From positions 24,835-88,834 of the forward strand of contig CAZINT010000004.1 in assembly GCA_964540825.1 (NCBI GenBank): a stretch of DNA of 64,000 bases, read 5' to 3'. Below the pieces are notes generated by a model. It searched no databases and was not told the DNA's origin. It worked only from the letters and a program-made list of their open reading frames with translations. A program made the position numbers and the translations under genes. The DNA is from an uncultured Gammaproteobacteria bacterium. Lineage in GTDB: Bacteria > Patescibacteriota > Patescibacteriia > Magasanikbacterales > GWA2-37-8. Shown piece by piece: positions 8,572 to 60,699 of the stretch. Position 1 is the first letter of the stretch; the number at the start of each line of letters is the position of its first letter.

Positions 8572-9750
8572 ATGCGTATTCCAACATACCACGGACAATG
8601 GATTGAAGCGCCCCAAGTGTTTTCCGGCCAGCGTTTACTGGCGCTGCCGGCCGTGATTGATTGTCACGTTCATTTCCGCACACCGGGACAAGAATACAAA
8701 GAAGATTGGATTACCGGTGCGGCAGCTGCTCTGGCTGGCGGCGTCACGACTGTTGGTGACATGCCGAATAATGTACCAAGCATTACCACTGCAAAACTTC
8801 TTGCGACTAAGAAAGAATTAATTACGGGTATACTTACTAAACATAATCTAAAAATACACCCTTATTTTTATTTTGGCGCAACTAATACCAATTTTGAAGA
8901 AATTAAAAAAGTTGCGGATGAAATTATTGGCATCAAAGTGTTCCTCGGATCAAGTACCGGGGACTTATTAGTAGACGATCCCGCCGCTCAAGAAAAAATC
9001 TTTGCGCTCGCGCACGAACTTGATCTACCGGTAGCAGTTCATGCAGAGGATGAAGCCTTGATCCTACACAACAAAAAAGAATACCCGCATCCAGAGCTTC
9101 GTGATCACTCAGTGATCCGATCACCTGAAGTCGCCGCCCACGGGGTGGCACGGGCCATTGAATTGTGCGAACGTTTTGGTGCAAAAATATATATTCTGCA
9201 TGTCAGTACGCCCGGCGAGCTCAACTTGATCAGAAAAGCTAAGCGTGAAGGGCTGCCGGTTTTCGCTGAAGCAACACCACATCATCTTTTTTTAACTACC
9301 GACGATTACGAACGCCTTGGCAGCAAGGCTCAGATAAACCCGCCACTTCGGATCGCAGCTGACCAAGCCGCGCTCTGGCAGGCTGTTATTGACAGAACAA
9401 TCGACACCGTCGCTTCAGATCACGCACCGCACACACTTACAGAAAAATATATAGCATATCCAGAATCCCCCTCTGGTATGCCGGGTGTTGAAACACTACT
9501 ACCCCTTCTCTTAGATACACATGCACAAGGCAAACTAAGCCTGGAGCGGATCGTCGAGCTTACTCACACCAACCCACAAAAAATATTTGGTTTACCCGAA
9601 ACTCATGACTGGGTAATTGTTGACCTGGACGGAACATGGACCATTGACGACGCTGCACTTAAAACTAAATGTGGCTGGTCAACTTTTGCCGGCAAAAAAC
9701 TACAAGGGAAAATCCTTGGCATTGTTTCAAATACCTTACCTCTAGCTTAA
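8572..9750 (+). CDS. pyrC: Dihydroorotase
   Basis: Amidohydrolase metal-ligand motifs DCHVHFR and DHAPH; 392 aa. Confidence 0.85.
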   Translation: MRIPTYHGQWIEAPQVFSGQRLLALPAVIDCHVHFRTPGQEYKEDWITGAAAALAGGVTTVGDMPNNVPSITTAKLLATKKELITGILTKHNLKIHPYFYFGATNTNFEEIKKVADEIIGIKVFLGSSTGDLLVDDPAAQEKIFALAHELDLPVAVHAEDEALILHNKKEYPHPELRDHSVIRSPEVAAHGVARAIELCERFGAKIYILHVSTPGELNLIRKAKREGLPVFAEATPHHLFLTTDDYERLGSKAQINPPLRIAADQAALWQAVIDRTIDTVASDHAPHTLTEKYIAYPESPSGMPGVETLLPLLLDTHAQGKLSLERIVELTHTNPQKIFGLPETHDWVIVDLDGTWTIDDAALKTKCGWSTFAGKKLQGKILGIVSNTLPLA

Positions 9751-9756
9751 TTGTAT

Positions 9757-10848
9757 ATGATTATCAACTGGTTCCCGGAGCATCCACCCCTCTATGATAT
9801 AACTAAAAGCTACCACGACAATGCCGAGCATGGACCATTCTTTGCCGGCGTCATTCCCGAACGCATCTGGCCAACCACCTCGACCTGGAACGATTTTTTG
9901 GGTTTCAAAGTTGCTTCAAAAATCGGTGTTCCCGCCGGACCACTTCTCAATTCCAAGTGGACAACGCTCGCCGGAAAACTAGGCTATGATATTGTTACCT
10001 ACAAAACCATTCGGAGCCAAGCAATGGCAGGCCACCCCCTCCCCAACATGCTCTATATTGATGTACCAGGCGGCAGCGATATCCGCACTACCGGGGACAC
10101 CGTAACAGTTAGGAGCAGCCTTCCCGGTAGCATGGACGAGCTGGCCGTTACCAACTCATTCGGTATGCCCTCTTACTCGCGCAATTTTCTTCTTGAAGAT
10201 ATTGATCGGGCGAAAAAAGCTTTGCATGCCGGGCAAATACTGATCGTATCGATCGTCGGCACGCCGCGGCCAGGCGAAGACTTTATAGAAGATTTTGTTC
10301 AGGCTGCCCTCATTGCCAAAGAAGCCGGGGCACCGATTATCGAAGCCAATTTTTCTTGCCCCAATGTTTGCCGTGGTGAAGGCAGTATTTTTACCAATCC
10401 TGAAACAGTCTCTACTATCAGTAAGCGCATCGTTGCCGCACTTGGCGCAGGCATTCCGCTCATTATTAAGGTGGGCACCTACGCTGATACCACACTCATG
10501 AAAAAAGTTTTCCTGGCTGCCGCCGACGCCGGTGTACGGGCGATTGAAGGCATCAATACCGTTGGACGCAAAGTTGTCACCCCTACCGGTGAACCGGCGC
10601 TTGGCGCCGAGCGACTCACAAGCGGGATTTGCGGTGGTCCGATCCGCCAGGCAGCAGTGGATTTTGTAAGGCAAGGGCGAGAAATTATTACCCGCGAAAA
10701 ATTAGACCTTACCCTCATCGGCGTTGGCGGGGTTACAAACCCGGAACATTTTAATGCATTTTTTGAAGCGGGCGCCGACGCCGCACTGGTCGCAACAGGC
10801 ATGATGTGGAACCCTTACCTTGCAGCCCAATTTCATACTCATACTTAA
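9757..10848 (+). CDS. pyrD: Dihydroorotate dehydrogenase (class 1-like)
   Basis: TIM-barrel DHOD motifs (NxSCPN, GGV...). The ORF opens with TTG at 9751; ATG 9757 was chosen as the start. Confidence 0.85.
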   Translation: MIINWFPEHPPLYDITKSYHDNAEHGPFFAGVIPERIWPTTSTWNDFLGFKVASKIGVPAGPLLNSKWTTLAGKLGYDIVTYKTIRSQAMAGHPLPNMLYIDVPGGSDIRTTGDTVTVRSSLPGSMDELAVTNSFGMPSYSRNFLLEDIDRAKKALHAGQILIVSIVGTPRPGEDFIEDFVQAALIAKEAGAPIIEANFSCPNVCRGEGSIFTNPETVSTISKRIVAALGAGIPLIIKVGTYADTTLMKKVFLAAADAGVRAIEGINTVGRKVVTPTGEPALGAERLTSGICGGPIRQAAVDFVRQGREIITREKLDLTLIGVGGVTNPEHFNAFFEAGADAALVATGMMWNPYLAAQFHTHT

Positions 10849-12354: not shown

Positions 12355-12413
12355 TCTTGACAAAAGGGGTGTTTTTTGATAGGATGGAGCGTTGCTCAAA
12401 TACGGAGGTTTCC
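12355..12413 (+). promoter_or_regulatory. Sigma-70-like promoter plus a strong Shine-Dalgarno in front of the high-GC gene
   Basis: TTGACA-17-TAGGAT, then GGAGG 7 nt before ATG 12414. This contrasts with the Shine-Dalgarno-poor neighbouring genes. Confidence 0.5.
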
Positions 12414-12752
12414 ATGTCCCAGCCTTTTCATGAGGTTCCTATCGGCTTTTTGATCGCCGTGCTTTACCACCACGAGATCGTCGAGGCGGTTGACCATGAC
12501 CAGGTGCCTGGAACAGTCGGCGAGGTCCTCGACTGGTCGAAGGCCATCCTCGGCATCGAGTTCGAGCCGGCCCAGTTCGTCGAGGCGCTCAAGCAGCTGG
12601 CGGAGTACTTCCGTCGCCGGCTCCACGACGACACGATCCTCAGACGGCTGAACGATGTGGTTCCGAACCGCCTCGACAAGGGTCAGAGCATCGACGCCAT
12701 TGAGCAGGCCATGCTCAAGGAGTTCGGCAATCACATCTTTTTCCGGAAGTAA
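12414..12752 (+). CDS. Hypothetical 112-aa protein encoded in a ~62% GC island
   Basis: Clean ORF with very high third-position GC. ORFs overlap on both strands, as expected for high-GC DNA. The product was not recognised. Confidence 0.55.
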   Translation: MSQPFHEVPIGFLIAVLYHHEIVEAVDHDQVPGTVGEVLDWSKAILGIEFEPAQFVEALKQLAEYFRRRLHDDTILRRLNDVVPNRLDKGQSIDAIEQAMLKEFGNHIFFRK

Positions 12753-12786
12753 CCCTGGTCAAGCGGCACACTCGACCACCCTCGTC

Positions 12787-12845
12787 CCGCCGCTACCCAC
12801 CAAGTTCATTCGTGGACTTTCGTAGGTAGCGGGACGAGCAATCGA
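12787..12845 (+). repeat. GC-rich stem-loop (14-bp stem, 27-nt loop) 3' of the high-GC gene
   Basis: ctcgtcccgc(cg)ctacc ... ggtagcgggacgag. No U-tract, as in terminators of high-GC organisms. Confidence 0.5.
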
Positions 12846-12897: not shown

Positions 12898-14043
12898 TTA
12901 TACTCCGTTTGCCGCAACGAGTCGGTGCCTAATCGCATCACGCAAATTCACGAGTTCCGGGTAGTCATAAAAAAATAATACTTTCTGATCAGCGATCGAC
13001 GTGCCGGTTGGCCTGTCTTTAAGGACAAACGCGCTCCAACTTTCGGCCATATCTTCTTCAGGATTTACTGCGGCATAGTCGGTAATAAACCAGTCCTGAT
13101 GTTGGCTATACCAGTCGTTCATTTGTTCTTGTATGGCCGCATCATAGCCATCTTGAGAAAGCGCTTTATATTCACTCCAGGTCGATTTCCAAAAGCGATT
13201 GTAAAAAGTATTCAGATACGAATCGCTGCGCATACAGCCAAACAAAGAAGTGTAGGCTCTGCAGTCACTGCCGTCATCTATGCTACTGCTTTCGCCATCT
13301 TCGTTATCAGAAGGCGCCACGCTTTCATCATAACCCGCTTGTTCGTTTTGATTCAGGGTAAGTGCGTGACCAAACTCATGAATTAAAAAATAGGTGAGGC
13401 TTCCCGGGTCAAAATTGTTATTCGGAAACGCATCAGCAATATCGACGTAAAGGGTGTAGGTTCCGCTTCCGGCGTCGCCTGGCACCAAAGACGCTGCTGA
13501 TTTCGAGTTACCGTCGGTATACACGACGTAACCGTCGACAATGTCATACATCCCTTTTGGAAATAGGGTGGTGAACAATTTCCACGGACGCTGCAGCTTA
13601 TTTTTATCCTTTTGCCATTTTTTCAATGCCGCCGGAACCGCTGGACGGTCAGTAAGTTTGAGTTTGCCGTCATCTGCGCTGTACTCCATAATCGACGTTT
13701 CTTCATCCACGTCAAACGAATCCTGTTCGCGATCAGCGTTAATATACTTGTTCCAAATCGCCAATCCCTTAGCCGCTGCAGCCGACTCCTTCGCCGTGCA
13801 ATCGCCGCTTGAGCTGCACACGAGTTTGCAGGCCTTAGCACTCACGTCATAGCGCTCGCTTTTCAAACAATCTTCAGGCTTCAATTCCGGAAAACTATGT
13901 ACCGGAGCTTCGTTTGAAAAAGAAAATAGTCGGGCCTCGCTGATTTTGGCACTGACTGTTTGCAAAGCGTCCCCCGGCTGGCAGCCAGCACCCATTGTGA
14001 GGACGGCGATTAACCCTGCGGTTATAAAATATTTTTTAGACAT
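12898..14043 (-). CDS. Secreted zinc-metallopeptidase-like lipoprotein
   Basis: Signal peptide with a lipobox (LTMGAGC), HEFGH zincin motif and a downstream Glu (EDMAE); 381 aa. Confidence 0.65.
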   Translation of the reverse strand: MSKKYFITAGLIAVLTMGAGCQPGDALQTVSAKISEARLFSFSNEAPVHSFPELKPEDCLKSERYDVSAKACKLVCSSSGDCTAKESAAAAKGLAIWNKYINADREQDSFDVDEETSIMEYSADDGKLKLTDRPAVPAALKKWQKDKNKLQRPWKLFTTLFPKGMYDIVDGYVVYTDGNSKSAASLVPGDAGSGTYTLYVDIADAFPNNNFDPGSLTYFLIHEFGHALTLNQNEQAGYDESVAPSDNEDGESSSIDDGSDCRAYTSLFGCMRSDSYLNTFYNRFWKSTWSEYKALSQDGYDAAIQEQMNDWYSQHQDWFITDYAAVNPEEDMAESWSAFVLKDRPTGTSIADQKVLFFYDYPELVNLRDAIRHRLVAANGV

Positions 14044-39542: not shown

Positions 39543-40085
39543 CTATTTGTGATCGTCCGGATCTGTCGGAGCACGTGGCGGCTGGTCGGCGCCCTTCAGC
39601 GCTTCACATTGATCGTAACCAAGCTTGTAGAGAGCGTCAGCATTCGCGTTAGCAAACGCTACGCATGCCTCCGACGTTTCCATCCCAGCTTTTCGAACCG
39701 GGTGGACCGGCAGTCCCAACCACAGCATATCGTACTTTTTTTCGTTCATGCAGTCGATGAATCCGCGCCAAACGATCCGGCGCGAATCGAGACAGTTGGC
39801 CGGCTCTCCTTGGAAAGGCAGGAGTTCAACCGGGGCGGACCGGGGAGGCGCTGCGGGGTGCGGCGCGGGTGCCTGCAGGGTAGCGCCGCCATCGAGCGAA
39901 GCAAGGGCGGCTGGCGCTGCGGGCAGAGCGGAAGGCTGCTTGGCCAGCTGCTCAAGGCACTTTGCCCGAGCTTTTTTGTTTTTCTTGGCTCGGCACTTTT
40001 CTTCCGTCAGTGGCTTTTTAACCGCGAACTTCGGCGCTGCGATCAAGGTGGCCCCGAGGAGCAGGATAAAAAACACGTTATGCAT
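39543..40085 (-). CDS. Secreted hypothetical protein encoded in a ~60% GC island
   Basis: Signal peptide MHNVFFILLLGATLIAAP, Ala/Pro-rich sequence and six Cys. ORFs overlap on both strands, as in high-GC DNA. Confidence 0.5.
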   Translation of the reverse strand: MHNVFFILLLGATLIAAPKFAVKKPLTEEKCRAKKNKKARAKCLEQLAKQPSALPAAPAALASLDGGATLQAPAPHPAAPPRSAPVELLPFQGEPANCLDSRRIVWRGFIDCMNEKKYDMLWLGLPVHPVRKAGMETSEACVAFANANADALYKLGYDQCEALKGADQPPRAPTDPDDHK

Positions 40086-47565: not shown

Positions 47566-48144
47566 TTATTTTAGCGCTTTTTTAGAAGCTTTGAAATAAA
47601 GGAAAATAAACAAAAAATGAGCAAAACCTAGCTAGATTTTACTTTTTTACAAAACAATGACTGCTGGTGGGGGCAAGGTTTGCATTAAATTGACAAACAG
47701 TTAATACCTTGCGCGCAGCTTTTCCGGATGGACATTTGGCGGACCGGAGGCCACACTTTTTTGGCTTATTTGAGCTATTTTTCTGCAAATTACAGAACAA
47801 GCTCTCAGCAGACTGATTATATGAAAAAAACGAAGTGTTGTCAAGGGATGATACAAACAGTTATTTTGTCAATAATTTGTTATTTTTTTGCTAAAATAAA
47901 GGTTTTACAAGCTTTTACTATCAATGAACCACAAAAATTATCCACAGCTTCAGAACGGTCGCGCACCCACCTGTGTGCTTTGCACTGGGTCCGGCAACAC
48001 TGGATGCACTTTTTTAATTTTACCCTATGTCGAAATAAGACGCAGCCGCGGCAGCACGCTTACTCGTTTTTACAGGTCCTTTGGCTCCTAAATTTTAAAA
48101 AAATCGTCTTATTATATAAAATTGAATTAGTTTTTCTTATCCAC

Positions 48145-48398
48145 TTGACACTTAAGTTGCACAAAACTACAATTGCAGCTGTTTCACTTTTTTTCCTGAC
48201 TACGCTGCGATAGAGTTGATGTCTCAACCGGGTCGGATTTATAAAGCATCTCTCTCCTCCAAATAAACATATTCTGTTTTTTTGGTTACGCTTTTAAAAT
48301 TAGATTCGTTAGCTAATACATGCAGCTCTTCTCGCAGCGTAGTTAGGGAAAAACACCCGTGAAAATAAAATTCGTCTCGATATGCGAGACGTTTTTTT
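48145..48398 (+). ncRNA. Candidate small RNA (~220 nt) with its own promoter and terminator
   Basis: TTGACA 48145-50, 17-nt spacer, TACAAT 48168-73. Terminator cgtctcg-atatg-cgagacg plus U7 at 48373-48398. An 11-bp long-range stem ctacgctgcga / tcgcagcgtag closes a domain of about 120 nt. No plausible ORF. Confidence 0.35.
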
Positions 48399-52694: not shown

Positions 52695-52702
52695 AGCCAC
52701 TC

Positions 52703-52744
52703 TAAAAAACCGGTTCACTCAAACAGTGTTAACCGGTTTTTTAA
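52703..52744 (+). terminator. Rho-independent terminator after recA
   Basis: aaccggtt ... aaccggtt palindrome followed by a T-run. Confidence 0.8.
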
Positions 52745-52828
52745 ATCCAAGCAGCGCTGCTTGTTATTTTAAAAAAAATATTGTACAGTTACTTCCGTAG
52801 TGGAACTTATTCGTTATCGTAACTCTTT

Positions 52829-53494
52829 ATGACAAGCTCAAATAATCAAAATACTGGCGCGCTCAAAAGTGTTGGCCTTGGCCTTGGCATCTTAGCTGTG
52901 TTGGCCTTGTGCGTATATGGCCTAATGCGGCTTGGCGCAGCAAGTAACCCTGCCGGCGTTACGGGCGGTGAAATCGCTTCTGTTTCGGCAGCGGATTGGC
53001 AGCGGGGCAATCAATACGCTAAAAATGTGCTTATTGAATATAGCGACTTCCAATGCCCCGCTTGCGCCGCATACGAACCCCTCGTTCGCCAACTCATGAA
53101 AGATTTTGATAATCAAATTCTACTTATTTATCGCCATTTTCCGTTATCCCAACATGTTCATGCGGAGCTTGCTGCCCAAGCTTCCGAGGCAGCGGGCAAG
53201 CAAGGCAAGTTCTGGGATATGCACGACCTACTTTTTGATCGCCAAGGTTCCTGGGAAAATACTGGCGACGCTGAAGCAACCTTCAAAGGATATGCCAAAG
53301 AACTCGGACTTGACGAAGCCAGGTTTGCCGCTGACCTTAATTCTGATGAAATCAAAAAATTGGTTGCCGAAGATGCTGACGGAGGTCTTCATGCCGGCAT
53401 TAATTCTACGCCAAGTTTTTACTTAAATGGCAAAAAAATCGACAATCCGAAAACTTACGAAGAATTTAAAAAATTACTTACTACCGGTTCATAA
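52829..53494 (+). CDS. DsbA-family thiol:disulfide oxidoreductase, membrane-anchored
   Basis: N-terminal transmembrane helix and the CPAC thioredoxin motif. Confidence 0.75.
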   Translation: MTSSNNQNTGALKSVGLGLGILAVLALCVYGLMRLGAASNPAGVTGGEIASVSAADWQRGNQYAKNVLIEYSDFQCPACAAYEPLVRQLMKDFDNQILLIYRHFPLSQHVHAELAAQASEAAGKQGKFWDMHDLLFDRQGSWENTGDAEATFKGYAKELGLDEARFAADLNSDEIKKLVAEDADGGLHAGINSTPSFYLNGKKIDNPKTYEEFKKLLTTGS

Positions 53495-53508
53495 AAAACA
53501 AACTTCAA

Positions 53509-53540
53509 TTAAAAAAACTTCCAGGCCTGGAAGTTTTTTT
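53509..53540. terminator. Bidirectional rho-independent terminator
   Basis: A7, aacttccagg-c-cctggaagtt, T7. Confidence 0.8.
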
Positions 53541-53608
53541 AATTGCCGCGACCAAGAAGTCGTGGCCTGCTCGAGACTCAACGTCTTCGAGTAAAATGTA
53601 CAGAGCGT

Positions 53609-54814
53609 CTACGGGGTATAGCGGAGCAGTCGCCCGACGAGTGTAGCCCCCGGCTTTCCGTCTTGCCCGGCCGGCCGTGTTATGACTATCACCTGATCCC
53701 TCCCAAAGGCAGCGAGGCTCGCTCCGGTGATTTTGGGATCAAGATCAAGATGGTGCGACGGATAACCCGTACTATCAACAGCTACAAAACGAGCGTACGT
53801 GTTGCCGACCTGCGGCACGACTGCCACCAGCTGTTTGACGCCGGGGAGCGTCAAAAAGGTGGTACCCGGCAGATACGGTACCGGCTCCTCCGCCGGCAGC
53901 TCGATTTTTTGGTCACTGTAGCCGATGATAGAGAGTAGCGACCCGGCATCGTTTCTCCAAGCCGCTGCCAGACCGGCCCCGTGCGTGTGGAGGCTTTGGC
54001 CCTGGATAGCAGTGTTCTTATACAGATCACTGCACGAAGTCGTACCATCAACCAGGTTGGTTCGCCGGTCGAGCAGGATGTCAGCGACCGTATCGACACC
54101 ACTGTAGCGCACGCCCGCATACACAACCACTGCCAGACGAAGCTCGAGAGCAATCCCCGTATCACCATTTTTCAGGAAGCGGCGATAGAGAATACCCACT
54201 CGACGTTCGACAGTGTTGTTTCCAAAGGTGAGCGGCGCCAGGCTATCAGCGACCGGTGCACACAATTGTTGCTGCCCGCCGTTTGGCAACACGGCGTTTC
54301 CCTCATTAAAGGGCTCGCCACTAGAATCGAAAGCGAACAGACGCAAGCCAGCGGTTGTCAGCTCCGGCCTCGGGGTCATAGCGACACAGAAGCCGCTATG
54401 GCAGGCAGCAACGCTTGCATGTGCATCGTTTCCCACCCGTTGGAGCCCACCCTTGTAGTCCCGCAGGGTGAAGCCGAGCGCACTACCCATCAAGACTGCG
54501 TCGTTACTATTCGCAAAACTCGTTGGCATGCCGACCGACGCCCCTGTGCTGGGCGGGCTGGCTACATGCCAATCCCCGGATGCCGGCAGAAAGGGCTGGT
54601 AGGAGCTGTCACTTGCAACCAGCCAGCACCAGGCAGTGCCCAAGCACAGCGGCGTCGGGACCCCAGGACTTGTTGCCGGCCACGAGGCCTCGTAAACTCG
54701 CGAAAAGCTGGCGGCAGGCCCGTCGGCCCCGCCGCGGTCAGAGGTGACGGACGGAGCAGCATCAGCCCCGCAACCCACAGCAGCGACCAGAGCGATCAAC
54801 CATAAACGAACCAT
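53609..54814 (-). CDS. Secreted lipoprotein, function unknown, in a ~62% GC island
   Basis: Signal peptide with a lipobox (LVAAVGC); Gly/Ser/Ala/Thr-rich 401 aa. Perfect Shine-Dalgarno AAGGAGGTG 5 nt upstream of the ATG. Confidence 0.5.
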   Translation of the reverse strand: MVRLWLIALVAAVGCGADAAPSVTSDRGGADGPAASFSRVYEASWPATSPGVPTPLCLGTAWCWLVASDSSYQPFLPASGDWHVASPPSTGASVGMPTSFANSNDAVLMGSALGFTLRDYKGGLQRVGNDAHASVAACHSGFCVAMTPRPELTTAGLRLFAFDSSGEPFNEGNAVLPNGGQQQLCAPVADSLAPLTFGNNTVERRVGILYRRFLKNGDTGIALELRLAVVVYAGVRYSGVDTVADILLDRRTNLVDGTTSCSDLYKNTAIQGQSLHTHGAGLAAAWRNDAGSLLSIIGYSDQKIELPAEEPVPYLPGTTFLTLPGVKQLVAVVPQVGNTYARFVAVDSTGYPSHHLDLDPKITGASLAAFGRDQVIVITRPAGQDGKPGATLVGRLLRYTP

Positions 54815-54949
54815 GATACACCTCCTTGGTGTAAACCGTTACGTGATTCTTACCATATTTTTAGCAAAAGTAAAGGCTTTACCCAAAAATGGGACCGGCC
54901 CAGTCAAATTTTTTTAGATTGACGCACCGTCTTTCTGTTGTTACTATGA

Positions 54950-55810
54950 GTGCATATGATCGACCCCCGTTTTCTAACCATCCAAAAAAACGAACATACT
55001 GAGTATTGTATTTATAAAAAAATTCTCAAAATCGTTAAAAACCCTAATGATCGTAAAATTATTGAACGAATGATCGCCCAAGAAAAAAATCATTATGAAA
55101 TGTGGCGAGAAATTACTGGTCAAAGCATTCGCCCCTCGCAAGCAAAGATACAATTCTACTATTGGATCACCCGTCTTTTTGGCCTAAGCTTCGGACTTAA
55201 ACTCATGGAAAAAGGAGAGAAGCTGGTTATCAGCCTCTACAGCGAACTCAAGGACGTGCACCCCAAAATGGCCAAAGTTATTCAAGAAGAACAGGAACAC
55301 GAAGAGGAATTACTCAAACTTATTAACAATAATGTCCTTACGTACGTAAGCGCAATTGTACTGGGGCTCAACGACGCCCTTATCGAGCTAACCGGCGCTC
55401 TAACCGGCTTCACCTTGGCCCTGTCAAACACACGTCTTATTGCGGTAACCGGCCTTATTACGGGTATTGCCGCGGCAATGTCTATGGCCGCATCATCATA
55501 TCTTTCCACCAAAGAAGATGGCGAAAAAAACCCGTTCGCCGCAGCGGTCGCAACCGGCAGTGCTTATGCACTAGCTGTTGCAATACTCATTGCTCCTTAT
55601 TTTTTAATCACCAACGCTTTTGTTGCGCTCGGGGTAACACTCCTCAGCGCCCTGATTATTATTTTGGTATTTAACTTTTATACTGCAATCTCCAAAGGAA
55701 TATCTTTTCGGCGCAGATTTGCTGAAATGGCGTTAATTAGTCTTGGTCTTGCGCTGATTAATTTTGGAATCGGCTATGTACTTAAAAAGTATCTCCACCT
55801 ATCAATCTAA
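54950..55810 (+). CDS. VIT1/CCC1-family iron/manganese transporter with an N-terminal ferritin-like domain
   Basis: N-terminal rubrerythrin/ferritin-like helices (E..H motifs) followed by five transmembrane helices of the VIT family. Confidence 0.7.
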   Translation: MHMIDPRFLTIQKNEHTEYCIYKKILKIVKNPNDRKIIERMIAQEKNHYEMWREITGQSIRPSQAKIQFYYWITRLFGLSFGLKLMEKGEKLVISLYSELKDVHPKMAKVIQEEQEHEEELLKLINNNVLTYVSAIVLGLNDALIELTGALTGFTLALSNTRLIAVTGLITGIAAAMSMAASSYLSTKEDGEKNPFAAAVATGSAYALAVAILIAPYFLITNAFVALGVTLLSALIIILVFNFYTAISKGISFRRRFAEMALISLGLALINFGIGYVLKKYLHLSI

Positions 55811-57215: not shown

Positions 57216-57731
57216 CTACAATAAACCCATGTCTTTGATGACCGAAATAAAAGAAGACGGCCTCCCCAGCCTTCGCGCCTCCGCGAGTTCAAAAGCCCGG
57301 TGGCCTTCGAGCAGGAGTTCACCAACCGGCATTTTTCCTTGACAGAGCACTTCATGCCCGCCGTCAAAGTACCAGAGTTCCACGAACGCAGGCAGCAGAT
57401 TTAGCTCCGAGTGCTCCGCAGTTAACTGCCATAGTTCACGGAAAATACGGTCAATAGTCTCCGGCGGGAAATAGGCAGAAAGCGCGTACACCACATGACC
57501 GGCGCCAGCGAGGGTCTCTACCCACGCCAGGAAACTATCGCTCCCACTTTTTTCGATAATAACCAGCTCGCGTGGATAGAGCTTTGGCTCTAGAACAAGC
57601 GGCCACACTTCGGGCTGCGTGGACACATCGGGCACGTCCTGTCCACGATACACAGCCAAACGACCTGGTGTAACCGATGAGGCAGCAGGCAAGCGTAAGA
57701 CGGGCAGCCCCCAGCGGATAGTATCACTCAT
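57216..57731 (-). CDS. Hypothetical protein, moderately GC-elevated (~55%)
   Basis: 171-aa ORF with no recognised motif. Confidence 0.4.
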   Translation of the reverse strand: MSDTIRWGLPVLRLPAASSVTPGRLAVYRGQDVPDVSTQPEVWPLVLEPKLYPRELVIIEKSGSDSFLAWVETLAGAGHVVYALSAYFPPETIDRIFRELWQLTAEHSELNLLPAFVELWYFDGGHEVLCQGKMPVGELLLEGHRAFELAEARRLGRPSSFISVIKDMGLL

Positions 57732-58418: not shown

Positions 58419-58493
58419 AAATTCTTTGCCTATTTTTGCACCCTATTCTTGTGCTATACTAAACAAGTAGTACGCTATTTATTCTATTTTGCT

Positions 58494-60410
58494 ATGAAAT
58501 TAAAAGTTATTCTTGCAGGTCTCGCCGCGACCATCTTTGTGTGTTCATCCACGCACGCAGCGACGACTCCAACACTCAATTTATCTGCCAAGACAGGTGA
58601 CGCAATCCAAGTAACTGCCACCGCTGACCCAAACACGACATTGCAACTGTCATTCTTGCCCCCAGGCGCTTCGCAAGTGACTACGCTTACATTTGGCACA
58701 ACCGATCCAAGCGGACGCCTGGTTAGCACCATAAGCAGCGGCGGCTACGGTATTCCTGCTGGCTCTCCTGTATACCTAAGCAGTAACGGCCTTCAGAGCA
58801 TGACCACGATCTGGCCAAGCTATACCAGCGCACTCTCGCTTTCGCCGAGCAATGTTCAAATCGGTACCGGGCAGAGCACCACAGTAACCGGCTCGAGCGC
58901 ACTTACACTGGCGGGCAATACTAATCCGAATAGTATTAACGCAAGTGTTCAGAGCGGCCAACTGCGGATCAACGGACTAAATAACGGATCAGGAACTTTG
59001 TATGTTTGCAGTGCGAATGTTGGCTGCTCCTCGCTTCTGGTAACCGTCGGCAGCCAAAATCAAACCACTGTTTCTTTGAGCCAAACTACGGTCACACTCA
59101 CCAAGCGTCAAACTGAAGAAATTAGTATTTTTGGGCCATCTGGTGGATTCTTTGTTTCCTCGAATTCAAACCCGAGCGCAGTTACACCGAGTATTAGCGG
59201 CGGCAGCGCGAGCCTCATTCTCTACGGTACAGATACGCTTGGCAGCGCAACCATTACCGTGTGTTCACGCTCAAACACTTCTAGTTGCGCCAGTCTGACT
59301 GCAACTGTGGGCGGTATGACTTCGGGAACTCTCACCTTTAATTCAAACAACTTAATTTTTACTCCAGGTCAAAATCAGACGATCACTATAAGCGGTGGAC
59401 CAGATAATAATTACTATATTTCCGGCAATTCTAATTCAGCTACTGTTCAAGCATCTGTTTCGGGGAATACACTCACTCTTATTGGGGGTACCACAGCCGG
59501 GACTGCCGTCATTACAGTTTGCTCAGCAACGGTAAACGCAACCTGCAGCAACCTCTATACCACAACCAATCTAACGGGTACTACTACCACCGCCTCACTG
59601 CTCAGCTTTAGCAAAAACGTTATTTCTGTTGCTCAAGGTGAAACCGCCACGATCACCGTAAGTGGCGGCACGGGGCTAGGGTATGTTATTTCTTCAAATT
59701 CTAATTCAGCAGTTATTTCTGCCAACAGCAGCTCCAGCAGTAACACTGTTACGCTGTATGCGAACGCAGCCAGCGGATCATCGGTAGTTACTATTTGCGC
59801 TACTGCCCCAACGACTGCGTGCGGCAGCATCTATGTAAACGCCACTCCTGTACAAACACCAATTTCATTCAGCCAAAATAATATTGTTCTTTCGCCCGGC
59901 CAGGCACTCAACCTGATCGTTACCGGCGGATCCGCCAGCACTACCTATCGTATTTCCTCTAACAGCAGCCCAAGTGTTGTATCGGCGCTTCTTGGCAGCG
60001 GCAACGCCGTCATTGCCCTTAAAGGCGGTGCCTCACAAGGTTCAGCAGTAATCACTGTTTGCTCTTCAATTGACGACACACTGTGTGGATCGCTGTATGT
60101 TTCTAACACCAGCCTGGCTGCAACCGTGCCAAGCACACCTGTAACACCGCCCGCCACCCCAACCCCCACACCAATAACGCTTCCAGCCTTTAAATTTACA
60201 AACCTTCTTAAAGTTGGCTCAAATGGGAACGAAGTTCGGGAGTTACAAAAATTACTGGTTAAACTCGGATTATTAAAAGCTACTCCAAACGGTACCTATG
60301 GGCCACAAACCCAGGCAGCTGTGCGGGCTTTTCAAAAGAAATATAAAATTCAAGCTGTTGGATATGTAGGACCGGCGACACGAGCACAGCTGAATCTTCT
60401 TACGCAGTAA
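58494..60410 (+). CDS. Secreted surface protein: about seven tandem Ig-like (BIG2-like) repeats of ~85 aa, plus a C-terminal peptidoglycan-binding domain
   Basis: Signal peptide. Each repeat carries a Cys pair (VITVCS...CxxLY). C-terminal PG_binding_1-like LQKLLVKLGLL...GPQTQAAVRAFQ. Confidence 0.7.
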   Translation: MKLKVILAGLAATIFVCSSTHAATTPTLNLSAKTGDAIQVTATADPNTTLQLSFLPPGASQVTTLTFGTTDPSGRLVSTISSGGYGIPAGSPVYLSSNGLQSMTTIWPSYTSALSLSPSNVQIGTGQSTTVTGSSALTLAGNTNPNSINASVQSGQLRINGLNNGSGTLYVCSANVGCSSLLVTVGSQNQTTVSLSQTTVTLTKRQTEEISIFGPSGGFFVSSNSNPSAVTPSISGGSASLILYGTDTLGSATITVCSRSNTSSCASLTATVGGMTSGTLTFNSNNLIFTPGQNQTITISGGPDNNYYISGNSNSATVQASVSGNTLTLIGGTTAGTAVITVCSATVNATCSNLYTTTNLTGTTTTASLLSFSKNVISVAQGETATITVSGGTGLGYVISSNSNSAVISANSSSSSNTVTLYANAASGSSVVTICATAPTTACGSIYVNATPVQTPISFSQNNIVLSPGQALNLIVTGGSASTTYRISSNSSPSVVSALLGSGNAVIALKGGASQGSAVITVCSSIDDTLCGSLYVSNTSLAATVPSTPVTPPATPTPTPITLPAFKFTNLLKVGSNGNEVRELQKLLVKLGLLKATPNGTYGPQTQAAVRAFQKKYKIQAVGYVGPATRAQLNLLTQ

Positions 60411-60627: not shown

Positions 60628-60699
60628 AGCGGGTGACGGGAGTCGAACCCGTGTCACCAGTTTGGAAAACTGGGATAATAGCCGTTATATGACACCCGC
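60628..60699 (-). tRNA. tRNA-Gly (anticodon UCC)
   Basis: Manual fold: acceptor stem GCGGGTG/CACCCGC, anticodon stem CCAGT/ACTGG with loop TTTCCAA, T-arm ACGGG-TTCGACT-CCCGT, discriminator U. CCA is not encoded. Confidence 0.85.

Follow-up and report, generated by a model that had tools for sequence, protein, structure and literature searches.

We analysed LP401, an ORFan gene for a 401-aa pro-lipoprotein (53609-54814, minus strand; ATG start, TAG stop), in a 64-kb stretch of contig CAZINT010000004.1 (assembly GCA_964540825.1; hereafter the window, numbered from its first nucleotide) from a Patescibacteria-like bacterium. The gene occupies a GC-rich block between dsbA and an oxidative-stress gene cluster, and the initial annotation, which correctly placed the open reading frame (ORF) there with its lipobox, had taken the block for a recently inserted island in a region active in horizontal gene transfer (HGT). 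Our results favor a different history: LP401 is probably an ancestral, vertically inherited and fast-evolving surface lipoprotein gene with maintained GC content and a maintained Shine-Dalgarno (SD) sequence, not a recent insertion. A block of raised GC stands at the same junction, between dsbA and the VIT transporter gene, in the related loci L001, L157 and L073 (59.6%, 56.2% and 54%, respectively), which is the very observation that the initial annotation had named as speaking against an island.

All four members of the LP401 family (LP for short) come from one Patescibacteria-like clade and share the slot dsbA(-vkor)/LP/VIT. The gene order reads FtsK-RodZ-RecA-[orf145]-DsbA-LP-VIT in L001 (GCA_964510495.1), RecA-[orf146]-DsbA-VKOR-LP-VIT-Prx-SOD-YecM in L157-L160 and FtsK-RodZ-RecA-DsbA-VKOR-LP-VIT-Prx-SOD-YecM in L073, while L155 (GCA_964634875.1) has the same backbone without LP and a VKOR-VIT gap of just 176 bp. 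A neighbor-joining tree built from a concatenation of seven core proteins (2351 columns, 200 bootstraps) resolved these lineages as ((((window,L001)100,L155)82,L157)98,L073)100, with L161 and L162 outside, and LP identities fall in the same order: 80% for window-L001, 44% for window-L157, and 28% for window-L073 and for L157-L073. Because same-junction orthologues exist and their identities track the core tree, LP401 was not recently inserted here; the empty slot of L155, a lineage nested within the clade, implies that LP was lost there. The simplest history places LP in the ancestor that all five ingroup lineages share, followed by vertical descent and loss in L155.

We therefore regard a recent foreign insertion at the dsbA/VIT junction of this genome as very unlikely, although the sharp GC edges at the gene ends, the atypical SD and codon usage, and the empty L155 slot would all suit it. 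Among the window ORFs, whose annotation for integrases was not exhaustive, we saw neither an integrase nor a transposase; no direct repeat flanks LP401 and no tRNA adjoins it, its flanks contain only hairpins and terminators, and the homology search recovered no match outside the clade and no donor. An Rfam scan of the window returned one tRNA (60628-60699, 6 kb from LP401) and, near LP401, only sub-threshold terminator look-alikes (Phe_leader, RNAI). When the empty L155 slot was aligned with the filled slots in search of excision boundaries, the VIT promoter alone aligned. The view of the region as HGT-active has some support as gene turnover in neighboring slots, described below, and failed for LP401 itself as a recent gain.

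The compositional anomaly that had suggested an island was confirmed, with a lower value. The LP401 ORF has a GC content of 60.2% (0.64, 0.53 and 0.63 at codon positions 1, 2 and 3; GC1, GC2 and GC3) and its block (53545-54835) one of 59.6%, compared with 46.3% for the whole window, so that the outlier status of the block stands and the figure of about 62% does not. The proposed outlier tests of composition and codon usage were run: LP401 is the highest-GC 1206-bp segment of the 64 kb (mean 0.463, standard deviation 0.029 for such segments), and its codon-likelihood z score against 54 native ORFs is -3.2, with a bias toward G-ending codons (CTG, CCG, GGG, GAG). The predicted richness in Gly, Ser, Ala and Thr was also borne out, as these residues make up 37.6% of LP401 and 27.4% of the native ORFs; Pro is abundant as well. 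GC climbs at ~53550 and drops at ~54800 (100-bp steps), and these edges match the LP401 transcription unit, in agreement with the claim that the block ends where the gene does.

At the protein level, the evolutionary rate of LP401 is five to eight times that of its neighbors. Relative to L073, the neighboring proteins are 57-91% identical and LP only 28%; relative to L001, the ratio of nonsynonymous to synonymous substitution rates (dN/dS) reaches 0.17 in LP compared with 0.02-0.065 in the neighbors, and the LP differences are spread along the protein instead of being confined to a variable region. A dN/dS well under 1, together with the kept length, lipobox and cysteines, indicates a genuine protein-coding gene. 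GC-rich DNA does yield long spurious ORFs, and a 274-aa shadow ORF lies opposite LP401 (53981-54805); nevertheless, the idea that the block is a non-coding GC-rich stretch with a chance ORF, or part of a chimeric contig of the metagenome-assembled genome (MAG), is scarcely credible, given the purifying signal, the conservation of ORF length, lipobox and cysteines at 28% identity, and the reproduction of the junctions by independent assemblies. The order LP401-VIT-Prx-SOD-orf171-YecM was recovered exactly in an independent Logan assembly of SRR11567520, and other MAGs carry LP401 orthologues at the identical junction.

High GC is a persistent property of the family. Core genes have a GC content of 46-47%, compared with the 54-59.6% of the orthologues; similarly, LP GC3 is 0.63 in the window, 0.66 in L001, 0.61 in L157 and 0.54 in L073, whereas the core genes of every ingroup genome have a GC3 of 0.44-0.48. 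Identity at four-fold degenerate sites among window, L157 and L073 is 0.25-0.31 for LP and mostly 0.26-0.46 for the neighbors, with a random expectation of 0.25-0.31. Since synonymous sites are saturated between the deep lineages and yet GC3 is still high, the GC content is not the decaying relic of an import, a two-state argument to which saturation prevents an exact figure from being attached.

These data also bear on a more distant origin, namely that the clade ancestor received the LP unit from a GC-rich and SD-using cell or mobile element not yet sampled, and that the unit has retained the signature of this donor. We consider such an ancient acquisition possible, though clearly less probable than the reading we favor. 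In its support, GC1, GC2 and GC3 are all raised, codon usage is atypical, the SD is foreign to the host style and the unit is self-contained; furthermore, the L162 slot contains a NUDIX gene and the L161 slot an unrelated GC-rich lipoprotein gene, and other GC-rich SD-led ORFans appear and disappear in nearby slots. Against it, GC3 lies 10-20 points above that of core genes in all lineages despite saturated synonymous sites, and no LP401 homologue was found outside the clade in ~15 billion proteins, by tblastn in 50,697 phage genomes and 72,556 plasmids, or in an IMG/VR scan. A passive relic should have ameliorated, so that a maintaining force is required whatever the origin. Ancient acquisition concerns origin only and is compatible with ancestral, vertically inherited LP401 for everything after the ancestor.

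The family recovered by these searches, which combined two word-index searches (5.8 billion protein clusters) with an exhaustive HMMER search (1.84 billion representatives), comprises the window protein, P0002 (80% identity), the L157-type 408-aa protein (44%), of which P0003 is a 194-aa fragment, and P0004 (28%). No match rose above noise in Pfam, NCBIfam, PHROGs or PADLOC, whether for LP401 and its orthologues or for orf171, orf182, orf112, orf145/146 and the orf125 of L161; a Pfam match to Nrf1_activ_bdg (E = 0.008, under the cut-off) was dismissed as chance. A PDB profile search gave 0 matches. The close relatives were located by exact-protein look-ups; a DsbA-based scan of GTDB genomes returned a single syntenic relative, its other DsbA matches being non-syntenic. 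The nearest DsbA relatives elsewhere, in Patescibacteria MAGs (Uhrbacteria, Saccharibacteria, Paceibacteria), reach at most 51% identity without synteny, and a VIT-based scan of JGI metagenomes yielded no relative above 52% identity. Several MAGs near this Patescibacteria-like lineage (L003, L004, L012) are titled 'uncultured Gammaproteobacteria bacterium', a label that is probably wrong.

A further possibility is repeated replacement at a hot slot, in which alleles from a GC-richer reservoir (related strains or some unknown element) would have been recombined in, which would hold GC up and synonymous divergence down. In the comparison of the window with L001, four-fold identity is 63% for LP and 37-47% for FtsK, RodZ, RecA and DsbA, so that LP has about half the four-fold divergence of the flanking genes, as replacement would predict; moreover, orf145/146 and orf171 are patchy, and the L161 slot contains an unrelated GC-rich lipoprotein gene. 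However, LP identities agree with the core tree, the known relatives all have GC contents of 46-50%, and no reservoir emerged from the protein, phage, plasmid or IMG/VR searches. The extra conservation is also uneven: G/C-ending four-fold sites are kept at 68% in LP and 42% in the neighbors, whereas A/T-ending sites are barely favored (53% versus 47%). Recent exchange would preserve both kinds of site and fits this pattern less well, while excess conservation at G/C-ending sites fits a GC-retaining force such as selection or biased gene conversion. We accordingly hold repeated replacement to be improbable.

Subsequently, we consider translation initiation. The SD of LP401, AAGGAGGTG (54819-54827, minus strand), is separated from the ATG at 54814 by a 4-nt spacer (TATC) and forms an anti-SD duplex of -15.2 kcal/mol; the initial annotation had described it as perfect and 5 nt from the ATG, and we find a strong, near-perfect SD at the shorter distance. 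Across the 17 nt upstream of 58 ORFs, the median duplex energy was +0.4 kcal/mol, which bears out the SD-poor character of the native genes, and LP401 was the strongest; other strong values belonged to the GC-rich ORF at 39543-40085 (-12.2) and to orf171 (-7.4, rank 4). In 44 of the 58 window ORFs, position -1 of the start codon is T. A scan that required a start codon 4-9 nt after a 5-nt SD core matched only four gene starts, those of 12414-12752 (plus strand), 39543-40085, 53609-54814 and 57216-57731 (all minus strand), the remaining matches being internal or antisense to native genes. SD sequences thus precede 4/4 GC-rich ORFs and 0/54 native ORFs (Fisher p = 2.4e-6), and the three to four compositional outliers initially counted in the 64 kb are these four ORFs. 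Every LP401 orthologue keeps an SD, in the form AAGGAGGTG, GGAGGT or GAGGTG, at 4-5 nt from the ATG. Some Parcubacteria lack the 16S anti-SD motif, mostly in lineages that also lack uL1 (Tsurumaki et al., PMC9297842); an apparent uL1 gene is encoded in the window at 94-660.

LP401 reads as a self-contained unit. A putative sigma-70-type promoter (54847-54874, minus strand; TTTACT, 16 nt, (TGG)TAAGAA) would give a predicted leader of ~30 nt that includes the SD, and 62 of the 64 nt before the ATG are identical in L001. At the matching promoter position, L157 and L073 have TTGACT...TGGTACG, and 5 nt separate GGAGGT or GAGGTG from the ATG; for L073 the second ATG is the better choice of start and yields MRSKASLIALVSFSIA-C. 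Downstream, the 3' untranslated region contains two predicted hairpins on the minus strand. Hairpin 1 (53570-53591) is short and has an equivalent at the same place in all four orthologues with a different sequence. Hairpin 2 (53545-53566), GCCACGAC...GTCGCGGC followed by a conserved CAATTAAAAAA, is kept in L001 and L073, and in its L157/L074 form, GTCCCGAC...GTCGGGAC, one pair change is compensatory and an A.C mismatch is repaired. Then comes a bidirectional intrinsic terminator (53506-53545), a perfect 20+20-nt palindrome common to the convergent dsbA and LP401. Folding of all four orthologues gave the same arrangement, with two short hairpins and then a bidirectional terminator that is flanked by A/T and also serves the convergent gene; the functions of promoter and hairpins are read from sequence. 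An integron cassette was considered and rejected: the 3' hairpins are without GTTRRRY/RYYYAAC (attC) cores, and there was no integrase among the window ORFs read or scanned, in an annotation that was not exhaustive.

The LP401 product is probably exported and lipid-anchored at Cys15. Its N-terminus, MVRLWLIALVAAVGC, matches the PROSITE PS51257 lipobox pattern when checked by eye (R3, a hydrophobic core and A-V-G-C15), and the predicted signal peptide with lipobox (MVRLWLIALVAAVG followed by C15) spans 54770-54814 on the minus strand. The lipobox Cys and the hydrophobic core are kept in all four orthologues, as VAMGC, GVAAC and FSIAC in the other three. Length is held at 384-408 aa across the four lineages, C57/C63 and C185/C261 are invariant in all of them, and C138/C143 are present in three. 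Elsewhere in the window, a 381-aa protein of native GC (12898-14043, minus strand; 47.6%) also has a lipobox, LTMGAG-C, and a weak zinc-metallopeptidase match (Peptidase_Mx), suggesting that lipoproteins belong to the normal repertoire and that the pathway is in use.

Following the lipobox, a low-complexity tether of ~30 residues leads into a beta-rich domain. AlphaFold2 run on a four-sequence alignment gave a predicted template-modeling score (pTM) of 0.57 and a mean predicted local distance difference test score (pLDDT) of 49, with residues 170-350 at 60-85 and modeled entirely as beta-strand; on a two-sequence alignment the pLDDT was 28. Foldseek matches in the PDB to this low-confidence model were nearly all beta-propellers (WD40, GH43, prolyl-oligopeptidase propellers and BtuG/BT2095), at template-modeling (TM) scores of 0.35 or less, and a BFVD fold search was uninformative. 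Alignment of segments of the family alignment with hhalign detected no internal repeats, only deliberate overlaps. LP401 may accordingly be pictured as a disulfide-stabilized all-beta surface protein, possibly propeller-like. It adjoins dsbA(-vkor) in every lineage, which makes it a plausible substrate of the adjacent DsbA/VKOR system.

Collectively, these observations support a model in which LP401 is an ancestral accessory gene of one small Patescibacteria-like clade, fixed between dsbA(-vkor) and VIT-Prx-SOD; its unit consists of an extended -10 promoter, a strong SD within a short leader, the ORF, two 3' hairpins and a terminator shared with dsbA. The product would be exported, lipidated at Cys15 and displayed on the cell surface, where a flexible Gly/Ala/Ser/Pro tether would connect the lipid anchor to an all-beta domain held by two disulfides, C57-C63 and C185-C261 (with C138-C143 in three of the four lineages), which DsbA/VKOR plausibly forms. 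Its fast evolution would be as expected for a surface protein that meets hosts, phages or changing ligands. A gene-specific force would keep GC and SD, either selection tied to SD-dependent translation of a GC-rich mRNA, in a genome whose other genes start without an SD, or GC-biased gene conversion.

Several points weigh against this model. The history rests on the five available ingroup lineages, and the node that places L155 has 82% support. The gene may have originated by an old transfer into the clade ancestor, and the low LP synonymous divergence between window and L001 could reflect a later exchange between the two instead of constraint. Genes for Lgt and signal peptidase II (LspA), as well as the 16S rRNA with its anti-SD, were not found in the 64-kb window. 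The adjacency of LP401 and dsbA may be coincidence, and the window and L001 have lost vkor. Finally, the weak model (mean pLDDT 49, TM 0.35 or less) and the lack of repeats make the propeller only a hint.

The genes around LP401 form a conserved backbone, RpoB-FtsK-RodZ-RecA-DsbA-(VKOR)-VIT-Prx-SOD-YecM, interrupted by several variable slots of which LP401 is the oldest and most stable occupant. The convergent neighbor dsbA (52829-53494, plus strand) encodes a thioredoxin-fold oxidoreductase. A vkor gene lies between dsbA and the LP slot in L073, L155, L157, L161 and L162, while the window (53495-53608) and L001 are without it, and no VKOR homologue occurs anywhere in the 64-kb window. The divergent neighbor, a Ferritin-like/VIT1 (CCC1) transporter gene (54956-55810, plus strand), is the first of the VIT-Prx-SOD cluster; its promoter (TTGACG-17-TACTAT, 54919-54958) stops ~8 nt before the ATG in the window and all six relatives, suggesting a leaderless or near-leaderless mRNA. 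In the outgroups, the L162 slot holds the NUDIX gene mentioned above, and the L161 slot (VKOR/VIT) a Cys-rich lipoprotein gene unrelated to LP401 (9486-9863, minus strand; 125 aa, 65% GC, GC3 0.76) whose ATG has GGAGGT 5 nt ahead of it; the gene call that the database gives at this place (164 aa, in another frame) looks wrong.

Similar turnover marks the other slots. The RecA/DsbA slot is empty in the window (52695-52828), L155 and L073, and contains GC-rich (55-56%), SD-led ORFs of ~145 aa in L001 (2518-2955) and L157 (6763-7203) that are 27% identical; this patchy distribution of orf145/146 needs several losses or transfers. The RpoB/FtsK slot carries GC-rich ORFs in L001, L155 and L157, and in the window a 161-aa ORFan of 38% GC (47728-48213, plus strand). 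The fourth and milder case of the initial annotation, orf171 (57216-57731, minus strand), was found as described, with 171 aa and 55.2% GC, and has AGGAG 6 nt before its ATG. This ORFan recurs only in L155 (12280-12795), at 73% aa identity, where, much as in LP401 orthologues, the SD is kept (AAGGAG) and GC3 is still raised (0.63, compared with 0.58 in the window); L157 and L073 lack it at the SOD/YecM junction. Neither a signal peptide nor a family match was seen for orf171, which appears to have been gained more recently than LP401. Nearby, a 653-aa secreted protein with Ser/Thr-rich repeated modules and a C-terminal PG_binding_1 domain (58449-60410, plus strand) is conserved in L073, L155 and L002.

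The two remaining GC-rich ORFs of the window are also ORFans. The first, orf112 (12414-12752, plus strand; 112 aa, GC 59%, GC3 ~77%, GGAGG 5 nt before the ATG), closes a row of pyrimidine-biosynthesis genes; the longest-ORF start at 12357 is probably wrong, and a 3' hairpin (12781-12838, stem ~24 bp) precedes a bidirectional terminator. The second (39543-40085, minus strand; 180 aa, GC 59%, GAGGTG 5 nt before the ATG) has a signal peptide, six Cys and an Ala/Pro-rich middle, and sits between rpoC and a gene for a 575-aa secreted protein, with a long GC-rich 3' hairpin and then a terminator; a homologue was found in none of the loci or family libraries searched. All three GC-rich window ORFs other than LP401 also have a GC-rich 3' stem-loop, which follows the stop codon and precedes an AT-rich bidirectional terminator. 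We tentatively raise the possibility that the four GC-rich ORFs and their counterparts in relatives constitute a distinct class of cassette in SD-less Patescibacteria. Each small, self-contained cassette would combine a promoter of its own, a GGAGG-type SD spaced 4-6 nt from the start, an ORFan (in many cases secreted and Cys-rich) and a GC-rich 3' stem-loop; such cassettes would fill intergenic slots of the backbone, evolve extremely fast, be gained and lost between lineages, and hold a stable GC3 equilibrium 10-30 points over the host. All cases seen fit, on a base of ~150 kb from seven loci. If the class is real, it would imply a second, SD-dependent translation regime for accessory or surface genes or, alternatively, an unrecognized gene-specific GC-raising process or a mobile gene pool in candidate phyla radiation (CPR) bacteria.

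Several known systems offer partial parallels. Single-gene islets of atypical GC are reportedly read through the amelioration model of Lawrence and Ochman, and LP401 resembles them in its sharp edges, its atypical codons, the ORFan nature of its product and its accessory distribution, with a loss in one relative. Unlike such islets, it shares its signature with orthologues at saturated synonymous divergence without amelioration, comes without mobility genes, repeats, a tRNA or a donor, and descends congruently with the core tree. Phage morons, associated with Hendrix and colleagues, are said to be promoter-gene-terminator units of deviating GC between conserved genes. LP401 is comparably self-contained (promoter, ribosome-binding site and 3' stem-loops), stands between syntenic genes with deviating GC and, as with morons, which often lie on the opposite strand, similar units in nearby slots vary in presence and absence; in contrast, it lies amid cellular core genes with no prophage, and has no match in PHROG, phage genomes or IMG/VR.

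SD-poor Bacteroidota still have the anti-SD, though in sequestered form, and an SD survives in a few of their genes, for example rpsU. The window is similar in combining SD-less native genes with a small set that has a strong conserved SD, and differs in that this set consists of GC-rich ORFans and not of housekeeping regulators. It differs, too, from anti-SD-lacking Parcubacteria, which are largely without uL1 (PMC9297842), in that the window appears to encode uL1. Among surface proteins, BtuG of Bacteroides thetaiotaomicron (BT2095; PDB 8okv, 8bmx) is among the top Foldseek matches, and LP401 shares with it a lipobox, a flexible tether and a predicted mature all-beta domain of ~350 aa. However, the TM score is 0.23-0.25 on a low-confidence LP401 model, there is neither sequence similarity nor evidence of B12 binding, and no TonB-dependent partner is found (the organism is probably monoderm).

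Host-associated bacteria such as Mycoplasma and Borrelia have fast-evolving, variable surface lipoproteins. Comparably, LP401 is predicted to be lipid-anchored and evolves far faster than the genome in a reduced-genome, probably episymbiotic organism; unlike them, it is a single copy, and we saw neither a family of paralogues nor repeats for phase variation nor a system for recombining cassettes. A phase-variable lipoprotein family was rejected for want of paralogues, and a diversity-generating retroelement target because there is no reverse transcriptase or template repeat and the differences are spread along the protein.

LP401 probably represents a new, very narrow family of surface lipoproteins beside disulfide-forming machinery, and that setting makes it a candidate for contact with a host or ligand. 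A high GC content combined with a foreign-looking ribosome-binding site is routinely taken as recent horizontal transfer; since the LP401 signature persists in orthologues whose synonymous divergence is saturated, HGT calls made from composition can misdate such genes in CPR genomes. The strict pairing of SD sequences with GC-rich ORFans, in a genome whose other genes start translation without an SD, is a lead on the way in which a particular set of mRNAs is translated in SD-poor bacteria, and on the source of lineage-specific surface proteins in episymbiotic Patescibacteria.

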